A stretch of DNA of 47,572 nucleotides from a virus (IMGVR_UViG_3300025310_000004:123759-171330), one strand, 5' to 3'; shown: positions 507 through 24,486, counted from the first letter of the stretch. Translations and numbers: made by a program. Notes: generated from the sequence alone by a model not told the origin.

Positions 507-1625
507 ATGTCCGACCTGTGTGTCACGCCACTAGAGATCAACGGCTTCACCCCGTGTCGATCTGGTGGACTGCTCGGGGATGGCAACGATCTTCGTGTCC
601 TGTTGGTCACGCGCGGCTACACCGCTGTGATTGCAGAACTCAAGCCCATCTCTGGTGAGTTCACTCGCACCCTCGATGGCACTTCCACGCTGACGATGGA
701 GGGCGTGGTGTCGGGGCGGTTGGAGGACTCGTGCTGCGATGGCTGGGAAGAAATCCGTCCCTGGGCGACTGAGATCATCGTGTTTCGTGACGGGCGTGAT
801 GCTTGGGCCGGTCCCGTCACGGATGTGGTGTTCTCCTACGGTGGGGTGCGTGTCGAGGCGGATGATCTGACGGCTTGGTGGGATCGACGCACCATCCCCA
901 CCCTGAACTTCTCCGGTGATGACCTGACCAACATCTTCCTCCGCATCCACGAGGAAGCGATGAAGCCTGACGACTCGATGAACATGAACGTCATCTCGCA
1001 GTTGACTGGCATCACGGGTGATCGCATCTACAACGGCAACCTCTACGAGTATGCGGGTGACGCCATCAAGGAATTGGCCGACACGGGCCTCGACTACACG
1101 GCGTACTCACGCAACATTATCGTTGGTGGAGAGGAGGTCGATGCCACCCCCTACGTCACCCTGCTCGATGAGCATTGGACCGAACCGCCGGAGGTTCGCG
1201 ATCGGGGCAACGAGCAGGCGACGGTCGTCATTGTGAAGGGCAATGGCGTCCAGGCGATTGCCTACGCGCCACAGGAATACATCGACTACTACGGCTATCT
1301 GGTCAGAGTGTTCGAGGAGCCCGACATCCTTGACGAGTCCTCTTGCGTCTTGGCTGCTGAGACGCGTGTCGATCTTCTCAGGGACCCTCAGTTCATCGAG
1401 ACGCCGGTTGGGGCAGGGCTCAAGACGACTGCCCCCATCACCCTGGCTGAACTGATCCCTGGAATGAGGATGCGGGTGGACACTCAATCGACCTGCCGCA
1501 AGGTCGTCAACGACTTCCGGCTGCAGCAGGTGACCGTCAACTTCGATGGTACTGTCTCGATCGATCTACAGCCCCTCGGCCATGTCTCCTCAGATGGGTC
1601 GGTGGACACCTTCACGGTCACCTAG
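507..1625 (+). CDS. Minor tail protein (siphovirus baseplate hub / Gp37-like)
   Basis: ATG at 507 just after upstream stop; 372 aa; actinophage minor-tail-type motifs (W..EI.V.RDG...W.GP, GLDYT...R.I); position in tail module. Confidence 0.7.
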   Translation: MSDLCVTPLEINGFTPCRSGGLLGDGNDLRVLLVTRGYTAVIAELKPISGEFTRTLDGTSTLTMEGVVSGRLEDSCCDGWEEIRPWATEIIVFRDGRDAWAGPVTDVVFSYGGVRVEADDLTAWWDRRTIPTLNFSGDDLTNIFLRIHEEAMKPDDSMNMNVISQLTGITGDRIYNGNLYEYAGDAIKELADTGLDYTAYSRNIIVGGEEVDATPYVTLLDEHWTEPPEVRDRGNEQATVVIVKGNGVQAIAYAPQEYIDYYGYLVRVFEEPDILDESSCVLAAETRVDLLRDPQFIETPVGAGLKTTAPITLAELIPGMRMRVDTQSTCRKVVNDFRLQQVTVNFDGTVSIDLQPLGHVSSDGSVDTFTVT

Positions 1626-1634
1626 GAGGATCAG

Positions 1635-1829
1635 ATGTCGTATCGAGCACCAGAGATCAACTCCCTGGCAGCGATGCTGTCCGAACTCGAACGTCGGGTC
1701 AGGAAGTTGGAGCAGGGTGGTGGGGCGACGGCTCCCGACCCTGGGTGGGTGCTGCGCGAGATCAACGGTGGCCTCTACTACCTGTATGTTCCGACCGGAG
1801 CGACCGGACCCCAGATTGGGACCAAGTAG
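1635..1829 (+). CDS. Small tail-associated protein
   Basis: RBS AGGAGG; L.ELERRVRKLE coiled coil typical of the small gene following actinophage minor tail genes. Confidence 0.55.
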   Translation: MSYRAPEINSLAAMLSELERRVRKLEQGGGATAPDPGWVLREINGGLYYLYVPTGATGPQIGTK

Positions 1830-1869
1830 CCGGGCTACACTAGTCCCGAGGACCCAGGAGGCTCGTTAG

Positions 1870-3039
1870 ATGGCACGCTGCGGATGCAGTTCAGAATGCG
1901 CTTGCGTGATCACCGACGGTGACTGCACGACGATCGCGGGCAACGGCAACCCTGGCGCGCCCTACCGGGTGAACCTAGAGATCGATCCGTCCCTCAACAA
2001 CCAGGCCGTCTGCGGCGAGGACGGCCTCCTAGTAGAGCCCCCACAGGCTGGTGACTGCATCGAGGTGGACGATTCGGTCGTCCCGGCGATCATCTCAGTC
2101 GAGGTCGATCCCGACCCAGACAACCAACTCGTCTGCAACCCTGCTGGCCTGTTCGTCAACCCGGCGATCACGGTCGCCGACACCGACTGCATCGACCTAG
2201 AGGGCGACGGGACTCCCGCCGACCCACTGACGGCCTCCCCCATCATCTCGCCGGATGTCGCGAACCTCTTGGAGTGCGTGGCTGCGCCCGACCCCAACCA
2301 GGGCCTCCGTGCCCGGCTGTTCTCGGGTGGGTCCGGTTGTATTGACATCTCCGGTGACGGAACGGCTGGCGATCCGCTCCTGGTTGGCCTTGAAGTCTCT
2401 CCCGACGTGGGCAACACCTTGCAGTGCCGCCCCAACGGAGCGTTTGTCCCGGCCGTTACCCAGGCCCCCATCGAGTACCGGGCGACGCTGCTCCACAACG
2501 GCGTTTGCGGCACGATCCTGCCTCCGGCCGCTGTTGGCGCAACCTCAAGCGCCTTCATCGACTACGACTACACCGAAGAAGCAGTCGGACTGATCCCCTA
2601 CTTGTGTGGCCTTGGTCCCGCCTATGCCAACACCTACATCGAGGTGCCGATCGGCGGCGCGGGCATCTACTTGATCCAGGCAACGCACCCCGCTTGGTCG
2701 ATCCTTCCAGCCAGCGCGGGAGACATGATCCTGAGGTTGCGGCTATGGCGCGGAGATACCACCGGGCGTCTTTCTGACGGCATCGGGCAGTCTGCCCAGA
2801 CTCGTTACTCGACGGTGGTTTCGGCGTTCAACACCCCTTACCTGCACATCAGCAGGACCATCTACCTCAATGATGGCGACTGCGTTGCTGTTGACTTCGC
2901 CGCCGAGGACTACAACGGGGCCTTCGCTGGGACGACCCTTGACACCGGACCCATCTACGGCGCTGGTGCCGTTGGACCCATCGTTCTTGAAACGGCCGGG
3001 CTCCCCTTCTTCCAGATGACAAGGCTTGGTTTGGCATGA
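1870..3039 (+). CDS. Tail fibre / receptor-binding protein 1 with Cys-containing repeats
   Basis: N-terminal repeats D.DCI.L.GDGT..DPL...SPD..N.L.C, then a beta-rich C-terminal domain; tail context. Confidence 0.6.
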   Translation: MARCGCSSECACVITDGDCTTIAGNGNPGAPYRVNLEIDPSLNNQAVCGEDGLLVEPPQAGDCIEVDDSVVPAIISVEVDPDPDNQLVCNPAGLFVNPAITVADTDCIDLEGDGTPADPLTASPIISPDVANLLECVAAPDPNQGLRARLFSGGSGCIDISGDGTAGDPLLVGLEVSPDVGNTLQCRPNGAFVPAVTQAPIEYRATLLHNGVCGTILPPAAVGATSSAFIDYDYTEEAVGLIPYLCGLGPAYANTYIEVPIGGAGIYLIQATHPAWSILPASAGDMILRLRLWRGDTTGRLSDGIGQSAQTRYSTVVSAFNTPYLHISRTIYLNDGDCVAVDFAAEDYNGAFAGTTLDTGPIYGAGAVGPIVLETAGLPFFQMTRLGLA

Positions 3040-3419
3040 GCGCTGTAGACGACGCCTTCTACCAGAACGACTGCGTTCGCGTGATGGCTCAGATCACCAA
3101 GCAGTTGGCCATCGACACCAACGGCAAGATCGCGCCTCAGCAGGACGCCCTTGATGGGGCTGAGGCAACCATCGCCTCTCTTGTCGCCGCTGGCCAGGTG
3201 CCGCCCGCTGACCTGGCGACCAAGACCGACGAGTACGTCCAGGGTGTCAAGGACTCCTACGAAGCGGCCAAGGCCGCATCTGAGGCCAGCCTGGCACTTC
3301 CAGTAGAGGTGCAATCAGCCCTCGGCATCATCCCCGAGCGCGAACAGGCTCGGCTCGACATCGCCAACCAGTGGCTCTTTGCCATCGACCAGGCTTGGAC
3401 TCCGGGGGGTGGCAACTGA
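3036..3419 (+). CDS. Hypothetical protein, possible fibre chaperone
   Basis: ATGA overlap with fibre 1; alpha-helical 127 aa. Confidence 0.5.
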   Translation: MSAVDDAFYQNDCVRVMAQITKQLAIDTNGKIAPQQDALDGAEATIASLVAAGQVPPADLATKTDEYVQGVKDSYEAAKAASEASLALPVEVQSALGIIPEREQARLDIANQWLFAIDQAWTPGGGN

Positions 3420-4279
3420 TGGCACAGATTCCGTGCGTCGAGGACTCCTGCTCGCTCGACCTTGAGATCACCGACGAGAACAAGTTGACCGGCGATGTCA
3501 TCTTGGACCCCGATGGTGGCCTCGTCTGTACGCCAGGTCAGGGCATTGGAATCTTGCTCGATTCATCCGAGTGTGGGATCGAAGCCTCCCTCAGTGCTGG
3601 TGGCCTTGCCCTCGGGCTCGACTACGACACCAATCGCGGCTTGGACTGCGATGGGTCTGGCCTGTACGTCCGTCGTCACCCCAACGCCTGCAACGACCTC
3701 GCCTTCGATGGTGGGCAGTTGAGGGTCAACAAGTACCAGTATCGATACGTCTCGTTTGGTACCAACGGTGGCAACCTTGGCGTGGCTGGTGTTGTCAACA
3801 CTGGCTTTGGGTCTTTCGCCGTTGACATCGACGCCTTCTGGGCTGCTTACGGTGGAGCAGCGCGTACCGACATCGCCAACAATGGCGTCGGCCAACTCAC
3901 CAACAACACCTGCCGCCGGATGCTTGTGGAGTTGTCCTACTCCATCATCCCCGGCTACTTCCTCGGCAACGGGTGGCAAGTGTGGGTGGGTGCCTACCAG
4001 GACCGGAACTACCCGGCGGGTGGATTCAGCGCAGAGGCGCCTTTCGTCTCCTACAACCACTCCCTGTCTCCATTCAACCCGAACTCTGGCCTTGGTGGAG
4101 ACTTCCACCCCCGCACCTATAGCGTCGGTGGACTGATCCTCGATCCTGGGCAGACCATCACTGCGACCATTGGTGCCTCGCTACAGATTGCTACCCCCGG
4201 CTTCGGCACCCCGGTGGGCAACACGGTCGAGTGGCGGTTCGGCTGCACCGGCACTATCAGCGCTTGGACGATCTCATGA
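3419..4279 (+). CDS. Tail fibre / receptor-binding protein 2
   Basis: TGATG coupling; N-terminal Cys/Gly repeats (D..GL.C..GL.V) related to fibre 1; beta-rich C-terminus. Confidence 0.55.
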   Translation: MAQIPCVEDSCSLDLEITDENKLTGDVILDPDGGLVCTPGQGIGILLDSSECGIEASLSAGGLALGLDYDTNRGLDCDGSGLYVRRHPNACNDLAFDGGQLRVNKYQYRYVSFGTNGGNLGVAGVVNTGFGSFAVDIDAFWAAYGGAARTDIANNGVGQLTNNTCRRMLVELSYSIIPGYFLGNGWQVWVGAYQDRNYPAGGFSAEAPFVSYNHSLSPFNPNSGLGGDFHPRTYSVGGLILDPGQTITATIGASLQIATPGFGTPVGNTVEWRFGCTGTISAWTIS

Positions 4280-20802: not shown

Positions 20803-20912
20803 TGCCAGGTGGAGCAGGAAAGGCCAAGAGGTCGTGCCCCATGTGCAAGCCTTACAAGTTCGCGGGCAACATTCGTAGGTTGACCGAGAAGGTTGATCTC
20901 GATGAGCGATGA
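20802..20912 (+). CDS. 36-aa CxxC peptide between terS and terL (not in ORF track)
   Basis: MPGGAGKAKRSCPMCKPYKFAGNIRRLTEKVDLDER; TGATG-coupled to terS, overlaps terL start. Confidence 0.5.
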   Translation: MPGGAGKAKRSCPMCKPYKFAGNIRRLTEKVDLDER

Positions 20913-23900
20913 GCACACCGGCTTCGTAGCGATCCCTCCCGATCTCCTGGCCCACGCCACAGCCGAGGAGCGCGAGGCGTACTACCAGTACCTCCTTGGC
21001 AACGTCATCGCCGCGGATGAGTGGGAACCGTGGATCAGGATGATCTTCCCCCAGGTGGCGGAGAAGCCGTTCTCTGAGGGTCACCAGAAGTTCTGGGAAT
21101 GGGTCTGGCAGGTCGAGCCAGGCACTCGCCCCAAGCCATGGGTGTCGATCTGGCCTCGTGGTCATGGTAAGCGCCTAAAGAGTTCGACACCAATCCTCAC
21201 GACGGAGGGGTGGACGACGCAAGGACAACTCAACATTGGCGACGAGGTGTTTGGACCAGACGGAACCCCAGCCGCCGTCACATGGGTTGGACCAGAAACG
21301 ATGCGCCCCCTCTACAGGGTTCGGTTCACTGACGGGACCGAACTCGTTGCCGATCCCGAGCACGAATGGACGGTGCTGGATCGCGGGCCATACGAGTGGC
21401 GCACGCTTGAGACTCAGGAGATCGCAGCGCAGCGGTACTACTCGGGCGGGCGCGCCAGGTTCATGCTGCCACATCGAGATGCTATTCAGGCGCCACGTCG
21501 AGACCTGTTGATCGACCCCTACCTGCTCGGCTACTGGCTAGGCGACGGAAACCACAAGACTGGTGTGCTGGCCGCTGGCTCGATGGATGACGCTAATGAG
21601 GTTGCACTCAACATCGAGTCCCGTGGCGAGTTGATCAAGAACCGCTACACGCAGGCCAACACGGGATGCAACTACATCGTCATTGACGGTCTACGCAATC
21701 GGCTATCCGCGCTCGGCCTTCTTGGCAACAAGCACATTCCCAGCGGCTACCTCACCTCATCCGAGGAGCAGCGGCGTGCACTTCTGGCCGGGCTGGTCGA
21801 TTCCGATGGACACGTTGACAAGAAGCGCGGCAGGGTCCGCTACGTGTCGCACGACCAGACTCTCGCTGAGGCGGTTCGACTGCTCGCCAGGACGCTTGGC
21901 TACAACGCCACCGTCTGGAGTGAAATCGATGATCGTGAGCCACATCCCGTCACCGATCTAGATGGCGTCGTGACGATGGTGTCTACGGCTGGCACTCGAT
22001 GGGTTGCATCATGGACACCACACGACGGTCTCGGCCAAGGGATGCTCGCCAGGAAGGTTGTCCCCACCTACGCCAAGCGCCAGCGGGTTGGGATTGAGTC
22101 GATCACCCCGGTCGAGTCAGAACCCGGCCTCTGTATCGAGGTCGATCGTGATGATGGCCTCTACCTTGCCGGTAGCGACCTGATCCCCACCCACAATTCC
22201 ACCTCGTCGGAGTTGGCCGTCGTCGTGCTCGCCGCACGTCGCAAGCGTCGCTACGGCATCTACGTCTCCGAGACGCAGGACCAGGCCGACGACCACGTTG
22301 CCAATGTGGCTGCCATGTTGGAGTCGCCCACGATCGAGTTGGCCTACCCCGACCTCGGTGAGCGCCTCATGGGCAAGTTCGGAACGTCCAAGGGCTGGCG
22401 GCGCAACCGCATCCGTACCAAGACCGGCTTCACCCTCGATGCCATGGGCCTCGACTCCGCTGCCCGAGGCGTCAAGTTGGAGGACCAGCGTCCCGACTTC
22501 ATGGTCTTTGACGACATCGATGGCGAGTTGGACACCGATGAGCGCGTCGAGAAGAAGATCAAGACCATCACCCGCAAGTTGCTCCCGGCTGGTTCTCAGG
22601 ACTGCGCCATCTTGATGGTGCAGAACCTCGTGCACGAGAACTCGATCTTCGCTCGCCTCTCGGATGGTCGGGCCGACTTCCTGCGTGACCGCATCGTCTC
22701 TGGCCCAATCCCTGCCATCTGGGACCTTGAGTACGAGGAACTAGAGGGGAAGTTCGTCATCACGGGCGGTGAGCCATCGTGGCCCGAGGGATTCCCTATC
22801 CCGTCGTGCCAGTTGCTCATGAACGACATTGGCCTCTCCGCCTTCCTGGCCGAGTGCCAGCACGAGACGAAGCCACCCGAGGGCGACATCTTCAACCACA
22901 TCGCCTTCGTGCGCGTCGAGCACCACGAGGTTCCGCCGCTTCGTCGTGCGGTGGTGTGGGTTGACCCTGCCGTCACCTCCACCGACTCGTCGGACTCCAT
23001 GGGCATCCAATGTGATGGGCTCGGAGTGGACGACAAGATTTACCGCCTGTTCTCGTGGGAGAACCGCTCGACGCCGTACCGAGCCATCCACCTCGCGATC
23101 GAGAAGGCCCTTGAGTACGGAGCCGACACCGTGGGTGTCGAGACGAACCAGGGTGGCGACCTGTGGCGAGTGGTGTACGACCAGGCATGTGAGGACATCC
23201 GCAACGAGCGCGGTGACCGCCACATGAAGATGCCCCGCTACCGCCAGGAGAAGGCCACCGCTGACCTCGGATCGAAGGTCACTCGCGCTGAGCGCATGTT
23301 GGTGGACTACGAGCGTGGCCTATTCGTACACGTCGAGGGAACTCACCACACGTTGGAGATGGCGCTACGCCGGTTCCCCAAGGTCAAGCCGTTCGACCTC
23401 GTAGACGCCTGCCTGGTGGCTGGCACCCTCGTGGCCACTCCCGACGGGGAGGTGCCGATCGAGTCGATCGTCCCAGGGGATTTCGTCTGGACGCGTCAGG
23501 GGGCGAAGCGTGTTCTCAACGCCGGGCCGACGCGGTTCGATGCCGAGGTCTACGAACTCGTCACGGAAGATGGACGCTCGGTGGTGGGAACCGGAGACCA
23601 TCTTGTCTGGACCCATGAGTGTGGATGGGTTCCATTGGCCCTCGCTGCCGGGCTGACTGTCAGTATTGGCTCATGGACCATCCCGTCGAGGTTGAATACG
23701 CCGGTCGGCGCTATCGCCGCTATCCCAATGCCAAACAGCGCAGCCATCGGGTCTACTACGTGCCCCTCGGGCCAGGGGATCGAATCTACTTGCACCGAAA
23801 GGTCTACATCGATCACTTCGGCCCGATTCCCGAGGGGTGGCATGTTCACCACGTCGATGGTGACCCCTTCAACAACGACCCCGGAAATCTCAGGGCCATT

Positions 23901-24486
23901 TCACCAGGGGAACATCGTTCAACCCATGGGTCAACATGGACAGACCCATCCGACATGGAACGGCATCTCGCAGCCATCCGAACCTTGGCCGCCAAGTGGC
24001 ACGGATCGCCAGAAGGGCTCCAATGGCATTCCGACCACGGACGCTCATCCTGGGAGGGCCGAGCCGAGCATCAACTCCAATGTGTTTGGTGTGGAGAGGC
24101 ATTCTCGTCGCTTGTGGCTTCCACGGGGTTCTGCTCTCAGCGATGCCGATACCGGAAGTTCGAGGCCGATGAATCAAACAAGGACGCCCGGACCTGCGAG
24201 GAGTGCGGAGGCGGGTTCCTCGCTGAACGACGGAAGGCCACCCGCTTTTGCGGCGTCACTTGTCGTAATCGTTCAACCTCGCGGAAGCAGCGCCGTGGTG
24301 TATGACCTGGAAGTTGAGGACGCTCACGAGTTCTTGGCTGATGGGGTTGTTGTGCACAACTGCTATTGGTCGTGGGCCTACTTGGCCGGGCCACTTCACC
24401 GTCGCAAGGCGAAGGTGCGTTCCTCGGCTCGCAAGTACCTCAATGCCGCCGTTGGCATCGGCAACGCTCCTGCCGGGTTCGGCTAG
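20902..24486 (+). CDS. terL: Terminase large subunit with two inteins
   Basis: Walker A PRGHGK|ST, Walker B FDDID, nuclease VDPA and VETNQGG, FP...DLVDA|C. Confidence 0.92.
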   Translation: MSDEHTGFVAIPPDLLAHATAEEREAYYQYLLGNVIAADEWEPWIRMIFPQVAEKPFSEGHQKFWEWVWQVEPGTRPKPWVSIWPRGHGKRLKSSTPILTTEGWTTQGQLNIGDEVFGPDGTPAAVTWVGPETMRPLYRVRFTDGTELVADPEHEWTVLDRGPYEWRTLETQEIAAQRYYSGGRARFMLPHRDAIQAPRRDLLIDPYLLGYWLGDGNHKTGVLAAGSMDDANEVALNIESRGELIKNRYTQANTGCNYIVIDGLRNRLSALGLLGNKHIPSGYLTSSEEQRRALLAGLVDSDGHVDKKRGRVRYVSHDQTLAEAVRLLARTLGYNATVWSEIDDREPHPVTDLDGVVTMVSTAGTRWVASWTPHDGLGQGMLARKVVPTYAKRQRVGIESITPVESEPGLCIEVDRDDGLYLAGSDLIPTHNSTSSELAVVVLAARRKRRYGIYVSETQDQADDHVANVAAMLESPTIELAYPDLGERLMGKFGTSKGWRRNRIRTKTGFTLDAMGLDSAARGVKLEDQRPDFMVFDDIDGELDTDERVEKKIKTITRKLLPAGSQDCAILMVQNLVHENSIFARLSDGRADFLRDRIVSGPIPAIWDLEYEELEGKFVITGGEPSWPEGFPIPSCQLLMNDIGLSAFLAECQHETKPPEGDIFNHIAFVRVEHHEVPPLRRAVVWVDPAVTSTDSSDSMGIQCDGLGVDDKIYRLFSWENRSTPYRAIHLAIEKALEYGADTVGVETNQGGDLWRVVYDQACEDIRNERGDRHMKMPRYRQEKATADLGSKVTRAERMLVDYERGLFVHVEGTHHTLEMALRRFPKVKPFDLVDACLVAGTLVATPDGEVPIESIVPGDFVWTRQGAKRVLNAGPTRFDAEVYELVTEDGRSVVGTGDHLVWTHECGWVPLALAAGLTVSIGSWTIPSRLNTPVGAIAAIPMPNSAAIGSTTCPSGQGIESTCTERSTSITSARFPRGGMFTTSMVTPSTTTPEISGPFHQGNIVQPMGQHGQTHPTWNGISQPSEPWPPSGTDRQKGSNGIPTTDAHPGRAEPSINSNVFGVERHSRRLWLPRGSALSDADTGSSRPMNQTRTPGPARSAEAGSSLNDGRPPAFAASLVVIVQPRGSSAVVYDLEVEDAHEFLADGVVVHNCYWSWAYLAGPLHRRKAKVRSSARKYLNAAVGIGNAPAGFG
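21172..22197 (+). mobile_element. Class 3 intein with LAGLIDADG endonuclease in TerL Walker A (342 aa, starts with Arg)
   Basis: Removal restores GKS; DPEHEW, LCIEV, PTHN|S; LGDG and LAGLVDSDG motifs. Confidence 0.88.
23410..24360 (+). mobile_element. Class 1 intein in TerL nuclease domain, with no in-frame endonuclease
   Basis: CLVAGTLV start, TGDH block B, VYDLEV block F, VVHN|C end; middle about 200 codons are S/T/P/G-rich and lack recognisable motifs. Confidence 0.88.
23673..24305 (+). CDS. HNH endonuclease nested out of frame inside the second TerL intein
   Basis: YLHRKVY..HFGPIPEGWHVHHVDGDPFNNDPGNL..EH plus two CxxC/FCxxxC zinc modules; alternative starts 23619 and 23625. Confidence 0.88.
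   Translation: MDHPVEVEYAGRRYRRYPNAKQRSHRVYYVPLGPGDRIYLHRKVYIDHFGPIPEGWHVHHVDGDPFNNDPGNLRAISPGEHRSTHGSTWTDPSDMERHLAAIRTLAAKWHGSPEGLQWHSDHGRSSWEGRAEHQLQCVWCGEAFSSLVASTGFCSQRCRYRKFEADESNKDARTCEECGGGFLAERRKATRFCGVTCRNRSTSRKQRRGV

Follow-up and report, generated by a model that had tools for sequence, protein, structure and literature searches.

Organization of the terL locus

The stretch of viral DNA IMGVR_UViG_3300025310_000004:123759-171330, which is 47,572 nucleotides (nt) long and is called the window here (all positions are counted from its first letter), forms the final 47.5 kb of a virus record of 171,330 bp in IMG/VR. It carries a gene for the large terminase (TerL) in which an intein and a gene for an HNH endonuclease occupy the same bases in two different reading frames. 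The TerL precursor is encoded by an open reading frame (ORF) of 1197 amino acids (aa) at 20893..24486, on the plus strand like the other features of this locus; the assignment is based on the ORF and Pfam, and the exteins are the same in a close relative, L032. Two inteins interrupt this ORF, and removal of both would leave a mature protein with a predicted length of 538 aa.

The second intein (23410..24360, 317 aa) was delimited by motifs, Pfam, and profiles, and is inserted directly after the TerL nuclease motif D-L-V-D-A. Its splicing blocks were reported to be intact in an earlier reading of this DNA made without database searches (the sequence-only reading), and all of them are present: Cys1 at 23410, TGDH in block B, VYDLEV, a terminal VVVHN ending at 24360, and Cys+1 at 24361-24363. 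The class 1 splicing residues are also conserved as columns in the intein alignment. In Pfam the intein matches Hint_2 with 34.0 bits (cut-off 28.4), while the match to Intein_splicing, at 34.1 bits, is slightly below the cut-off of 35.8. AlphaFold2 predicts that the intein-frame protein has two beta-rich folded parts with a pLDDT of about 95, an N-terminal splicing domain with blocks A and B (residues 1-90, 23410..23679) and a C-terminal splicing domain with blocks F and G, from VYDLEV to VVVHN (residues 279-317, 24244..24360). The interior between them (residues 92-273, 23683..24228), about 180 residues, is predicted to be disordered, with pLDDT values of 35-48. As the sequence-only reading had described, the interior is rich in Ser, Thr, Pro, and Gly (48%, compared with 23% in the extein) and has zero stops in the intein frame. 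By its motifs and profile matches the insert is predicted to be a class 1 intein with a Hint fold; TerL is essential to the phage, and intact motifs within an essential protein suggest that the intein does splice.

The interior of the intein is covered by a second ORF in the -1 frame (23673..24305), which encodes 210 aa followed by a TGA and was identified by Pfam HNH_3, tblastn, and profile alignment. This frame is open over 23619-24305 and is closed upstream by the TGA at 23616-23618; three candidate start codons lie within it, ATG 23673 (which aligns with the start codons of relatives), GTG 23619, and ATG 23625. The ORF matches HNH_3 with 51 bits (cut-off 24.8, E 1.1e-13) and has significant homology to phage TJE1 in tblastn (3e-34). 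It has the motif PIPEGWHVHH...NN...EH, which forms a catalytic core that is invariant across the family (23787..23915), and eight cysteines that form two CxxC...CxxxC ribbons, so the HNH domain and two zinc modules read from the sequence at the outset are both present. The alignment places the first zinc ribbon at 24081..24146 (Cys137, 140, 154, and 158, all invariant columns) and the second at 24195..24263 (Cys175, 178, 193, and 197). Residues H59, H60, N72, H81, and H85 do not vary among 14 sequences, and the window retains all 12 of the family-invariant columns, with the catalytic His and Asn residues and the first zinc ribbon among them.

The HNH-frame protein also has a confident predicted fold, with a mean pLDDT of 92.3. 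Its best match in the Protein Data Bank (PDB) by Foldseek is I-HmuI (1u3e; probability 0.91, E 0.04), although the global match is weak because the model is elongated and multi-domain; a profile search of the PDB also returned I-HmuI, at E 0.0055. I-HmuI is an endonuclease of the homing type. The ORF is best described as a predicted HNH (beta-beta-alpha-Me) endonuclease of the HNH_3 family, with a putative activity of site-specific nicking or cleavage. No second copy of the HNH was found within the 171-kb record.

At the 3' end, both frames encode predicted structure over the same bases for about 20 codons (24244..24305). The last two Cys codons of the second zinc ribbon (24249 and 24261) lie under the intein beta-strands that begin at residue 279, that at 24261 under the strand LVVIVQ, and the block F codons TAT-GAC (Tyr-Asp) supply the stop of the HNH (TGA 24303-24305). 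The sequence-only reading had proposed that both frames are meaningful here, and the predicted structures agree with it, as folded parts of both proteins are joined in this region. Among 18 elements in which the position of the HNH stop was measured, it is always 19-70 nt short of the intein end, and in six, the window being one, it falls exactly within the block F Tyr-Asp/Asn codons.

Distribution of the layout among phages

Relatives of this region were found only at the protein level, as blastn against the phage collection returned no matches. When the HNH was used in tblastn, relatives were found inside the single annotated terL coding sequence of four cultured phages whose hosts belong to different phyla: Tetrasphaera phage TJE1, Acinetobacter phage Highwayman, Clostridium phage phiCDHM19 (30% GC), and Rhodobacteraceae phage LS06. 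In each of the four, the HNH is at offset +2 from the terL start, which is the -1 frame seen in the window. Profiles of the N-terminal splicing part (N), the HNH, and the C-terminal splicing part (C) were then searched in all three frames. A first scan found the same layout in 14 IMG/VR loci, and all members of this first locus set with both intein parts have the order N in frame f, HNH in f-1, and C in f with no stop in f, except for Lactobacillus phage CL2 and Vibrio phage 1.238.A. With the HNH alignment, a second scan of IMG/VR yielded 153 relatives; the best 80 of these, some of them on contigs shared with the first scan, were classified as contiguous inteins with the HNH at -1 (67), split (2), partial (4), or without intein parts (7). 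No in-frame version of the HNH was found among these 80 relatives, the first locus set, or the four cultured phages.

Altogether, a contiguous intein with an HNH at -1 is present in about 90 phage and IMG/VR loci, which span phages of actinobacteria, Bacillota, and Pseudomonadota; the HNH is always at -1, and the genes hosting the intein are nearly all TerL of the Terminase_3 or Terminase_6 type. The sequence-only reading had suggested that an out-of-frame HNH gene in an intein could be an intermediate in the acquisition of an endonuclease. With the layout shared by 67 of 80 classified loci and the four cultured phages, and none in frame, a rare or transient intermediate is not what the family displays, and the layout looks like a stable state. 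The suggestion in the same reading that the HNH is of a free-standing type and separately initiated fared better: relatives of the HNH stand beside terminase genes without an intein in two phages, preceding terS in BP10 and, in PAE1, directly following terL and lying ahead of the portal gene.

The insertion points are staggered at the TerL nuclease motif D-H-x-x-D-A (23389-24372 in the window): DH|(C/S)x in CL2 and LS06, DHx|C in TJE1, phiCDHM19, and the Vibrio phage, and DxxDA|C in the window and Highwayman. One locus, L033, has a terL ORF (648-3788, 1046 aa) with two homologous inteins, both of which contain an HNH gene of their own in the -1 frame, at the sites WDFA|C (1413-2246) and HDDI|C (2691-3674).

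A split state occurs in two cultured phages, CL2 (L002:1670-2690) and Vibrio phage 1.238.A (L010:1654-2760). In CL2, a stop follows the N part, which is read in the same frame as the HNH, whereas the C part is read in a different one. In Vibrio phage 1.238.A, the intein frame has 14 stops and a separately annotated "hint domain protein" is present. In both phages the intein is probably a natural split intein whose halves are separated by an HNH gene, and two IMG/VR loci (L037 and L038) are also split. In Exiguobacterium phage vB_EauM-23 (L007:1500-2760), a homologous HNH splits terL near the same motif with no flanking intein parts; the upstream ORF ends with ...DKNNHSMAA, and the downstream ORF resumes in another frame with ...GDNNQCDATRY. 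A group I intron was considered as the carrier in the three phages in which the HNH splits terL (EauM-23, CL2, and Vibrio phage 1.238.A), but there was no Rfam match at E 0.1.

Chance and selection in the two frames

The sequence-only reading had proposed that recoding of the HNH would reveal how often the other frame remains free of stops by chance. This probability was computed exactly by dynamic programming, given the HNH protein and local codon usage. An open intein frame is indeed improbable in the AT-rich relatives (5e-4 in Highwayman and 2e-8 in phiCDHM19), but it is unremarkable in the window, where the probability is about 0.27. For the family as a whole, the open intein frame is significantly beyond chance: it is open in 50 of 50 non-duplicate IMG/VR relatives, with a median probability of 0.016 and a summed log10 P of -90, or -58 when the codon usage of each gene itself is used.

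The third frame always contains stops (5-34, with probabilities of 1e-2 to 1e-29). Only the -1 register is seen because the other alternative frame of a Lys-, Arg-, and Glu-rich HNH protein is always filled with stops, and this explains the -1-only pattern whether the composite arose once or several times.

Conservation differs between the two frames. When 18 elements were aligned over 128 codon columns, positions 1, 2, and 3 of the HNH codons had mean nucleotide identities of 0.50, 0.53, and 0.33, HNH position 3 being position 2 of the intein-frame codon. At the amino-acid level, the HNH frame is 36% identical over this DNA and the intein frame 20% (18 elements). It follows that the middle region is a nuclease gene and that the intein frame need only stay open, as it must because TerL is essential. 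Purifying selection acts on the HNH frame, while the host frame has no predicted fold over the overlap. The DNA thus codes in two frames, as first read, with an open intein in the TerL frame and an HNH ORF under selection.

The intein-frame translations share a pseudo-motif, approximately G-T-S-I-T-x-T-x-T-R-x-T-T (alignment columns ~235-265, window ~23820-23900). It is a mere shadow of PIPEGWHVHHxDGD in the HNH frame and could pass for a conserved intein block.

Translation signals of the HNH

Each of 66 loci has a start codon at the N-terminal end of the HNH homology (51 ATG, 13 GTG, and 2 TTG), mostly within four codons of profile position 1; in the window, the ATG is exactly at position 1. 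A Shine-Dalgarno-like motif precedes 41% of the HNH starts compared with 12.6% of control triplets (p 8e-9). Programmed -1 frameshifting was considered as another route, but there is no X_XXY_YYZ slippery site at 23619-23688 and only one chance site across 22 loci. Internal initiation is the best-supported route by which the HNH protein would be made.

A relative without the HNH core

L032 is a Logan assembly from another run, with 95% nucleotide identity to the window. It is collinear with the window, with zero gaps at both frame junctions, but lacks 378 nt (126 TerL codons, 23713..24090), so the catalytic half of the HNH is lost and the TerL frame is kept. This deletion argues that the HNH is dispensable and selfish rather than a packaging factor. 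The exteins and splicing domains of the window and L032 differ mostly at synonymous sites. Of the 13 differences in the remaining middle, 7 change the amino acid in the intein frame and 9 do so in the HNH frame; near-equal change in both frames is expected because the HNH in L032 is already dead. Among the homologs that the sequence-only reading had suggested looking for, the mini-intein version of the TerL allele is represented by L032 with its in-frame deletion, whereas an empty-site allele near this terL and an in-frame version were not found.

The first TerL intein (21172-22197, 342 aa) has a LAGLIDADG domain and interrupts the Walker A motif at GHGK|ST. It starts with Arg and bears class 3 hallmarks: a Trp after block B, a Cys in block F, and a T-H-N end. 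This intein is polymorphic, as L032 has an empty site (GHGK-STSSEL).

Interpretation and alternative explanations

Taken as a whole, the second intein and its out-of-frame HNH gene are most probably a composite selfish element. The terL frame encodes a predicted Hint domain in two parts, with a disordered loop of about 180 residues between them, and the 317-residue insert would be translated with TerL and then excised by protein splicing, restoring the D-x-x-D-A/C-Y nuclease motif. The DNA of the loop is in fact the -1-frame HNH gene, in which two zinc ribbons come after an I-HmuI-like HNH_3 core. The HNH would be translated separately, its internal start most likely being ATG 23673, and probably nicks or cuts the intein-less terL of co-infecting phages, and repair would copy the intein and the nuclease together. 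Signs of mobility in the family include two elements in one terL (L033), the occupation of several terL sites, and the staggered insertion points.

Several observations weigh against this interpretation. No Shine-Dalgarno-like motif precedes GTG 23619, ATG 23625, or ATG 23673 in the window; this is the weakest point for the window copy and makes the translation of its HNH conjectural. The open intein frame of the window alone is not significant, as about 200 stop-free codons are weak evidence at 60% GC. The only close relative is without the HNH core; the homing cycle may have reached its decay phase in this lineage. An empty-site allele near this terL was not found, L032 carrying the second intein as well. 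Finally, distances between HNH cores and between splicing domains are uncorrelated (Mantel r 0.13, p 0.17), a comparison that is uninformative at 35-50% identity and gives no support to movement of the HNH and splicing domain as one unit.

Some of these points would also fit an HNH ORF that is a silent relic, in which the intein is fixed and splicing while the nuclease is untranslated or inactive and has not yet acquired a stop. The missing Shine-Dalgarno-like motif, the deletion of the catalytic half in the closest relative, and the similar rates of change in both frames between the window and L032 are what such a relic would show. However, a neutral pattern is expected in that comparison in any case, the HNH of L032 being dead, while the window copy retains every invariant column, a fold predicted with a pLDDT of 92, and an ATG at the same profile position as in most relatives. 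A silent relic is for these reasons considered unlikely.

Less probable still is that the HNH is an accessory nuclease of the terminase, held inside terL for co-expression, rather than a homing enzyme. The model for such a function would be HK97 gp74, which assists cos cleavage. Every copy of the HNH is indeed in or beside terminase genes (within terL, upstream of terS in BP10, or in the gap between terL and the portal gene in PAE1), and a link of this kind has been speculated for brucellaphages (PMC4422536). The window protein differs from packaging HNHs of the gp74 type by its Pfam family, HNH_3, and it resembles the homing-type I-HmuI; L032 retains an intact TerL frame without the catalytic half of the HNH; and two copies in one terL, together with split and decayed forms, fit a selfish element better than a packaging factor.

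It is scarcely credible that the picture results from an artefact, in which a +1 and -1 indel pair could in principle mimic it from an in-frame HNH intein, or from an HNH fusion produced by frameshifting, for which the 18 open codons upstream of the ATG might speak, since the independent assembly of L032 has no gaps at either junction and the same frame offset recurs in about 90 unrelated loci with none in frame, which excludes an assembly artefact, and the slippery site needed for frameshifting is missing.

Comparison with known systems

The sequence-only reading had left open that the layout might be unreported; this is not so, as an out-of-frame HNH in a terL intein is known from Brucella phage Tb (PMC4422536) and related layouts from Gogarten-lab preprints of 2025-26. 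The terL of Tb is annotated "intein present" with an overlapping HNH gene (GenBank NC_019446), and an intein-encoded HNH out of frame within terL has been described in all brucellaphages (Virol J 2015, PMC4422536). The layout has therefore been known since 2012-2015 from brucellaphage terL, and the window is a further example. As in the window, Brucella phages Tb and Pr (Perisivirus) have a contiguous terL ORF with an intein and a complete HNH/zinc-ribbon ORF in another frame on the same strand, and the Tb splicing domain (L115:848-3394) matches the N and C profiles of the window family (E 1.6e-10 and 1e-10). However, the nuclease of Tb is read in the +1 frame and has its zinc ribbons at the N-terminus and its HNH core, with CxxC ligands, at the C-terminus; only 52 residues align with the window HNH (38% identity, E 3e-8), and the intein is at another terL site, in the ATPase region. 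Related inteins have thus taken up unrelated nuclease genes in different registers.

TerL inteins with out-of-frame Endo VII-like homing endonucleases have been described in actinophages, for which the same invasion model was proposed (bioRxiv 10.1101/2025.01.02.630785). They resemble the window in having a nuclease on the same strand ("frame 3" in that study) and an unstructured interior in the host frame, but the nucleases are Endo VII-like with a CxxxC start, and the DE1 inteins are 795 nt long and lie at terL nt 1147. None of the phages in that study matched the window HNH (tblastn, E 1e-5), and these "OOF ENDO VII" inteins were ruled out as members of the same family by sequence, site, and the absence of tblastn matches. 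That survey, which was of PhagesDB only, calls the layout rare, whereas it is dominant here in a family of at least 153 IMG/VR relatives.

A cyanobacterial dnaX intein has an out-of-frame LAGLIDADG endonuclease (Phillips et al., bioRxiv 10.64898/2026.09.14.751524), a case that the preprint credits to Gorbalenya 1998. It shares with the window family purifying selection in the nuclease frame with a relaxed host frame, and mini-intein alleles alongside full ones; it differs in its LAGLIDADG nuclease, cellular host gene, and frame. The split, or fractured-gene, intein state was described by Dassa et al. 2009 (PMC2677866), with GIY-YIG and Vsr-like nucleases and HNH cases that were only predicted. 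The relatives in Vibrio phage 1.238.A, CL2, L037, and L038 are like this state, unlike the window, where the intein ORF is contiguous and has none of the interruptions by which a fractured gene is recognized. A hidden out-of-frame HNH is also present in an actinophage DNA methylase, the ShiLan domain (Arsenault et al. 2025, PMC11855218). There too, an HNH ORF is overprinted on an open host frame with no obvious ribosome-binding site, but there is no intein and the insert is retained in the host protein. No paper was found on the present HNH_3 family, its breadth, or the intein of TJE1.

Implications

Gene callers fuse all of these features into one long terL, and the nuclease is overlooked. 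The cultured carriers TJE1, phiCDHM19, Highwayman, CL2, and Vibrio phage 1.238.A open translation and homing to direct testing. The window adds a GC-rich member from an uncultured phage to a family in which an essential gene, a splicing element, and a nuclease gene share the same bases. Four stages are present side by side in this family: the free-standing nuclease gene, the overprinted contiguous intein, the split intein, and the nuclease-deleted mini-intein of L032. These bear on how inteins evolved, as the "splicing first" model holds that a mini-intein is invaded by a free-standing nuclease gene.

A broader proposal, for and against which the chances appear evenly balanced, is that the HNH_3 and zinc-ribbon nuclease is an obligately out-of-frame homing endonuclease, for which dual coding is a stable, selected end state in a family that is still moving. 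The staggered insertion points, the two copies in one gene, and the existence of split and decayed derivatives would be the signs of such movement. If this is true, dual coding may bring two gains: the dosage of the nuclease would be uncoupled from that of TerL, and the essential terL frame would guard the nuclease from decay by frameshift.

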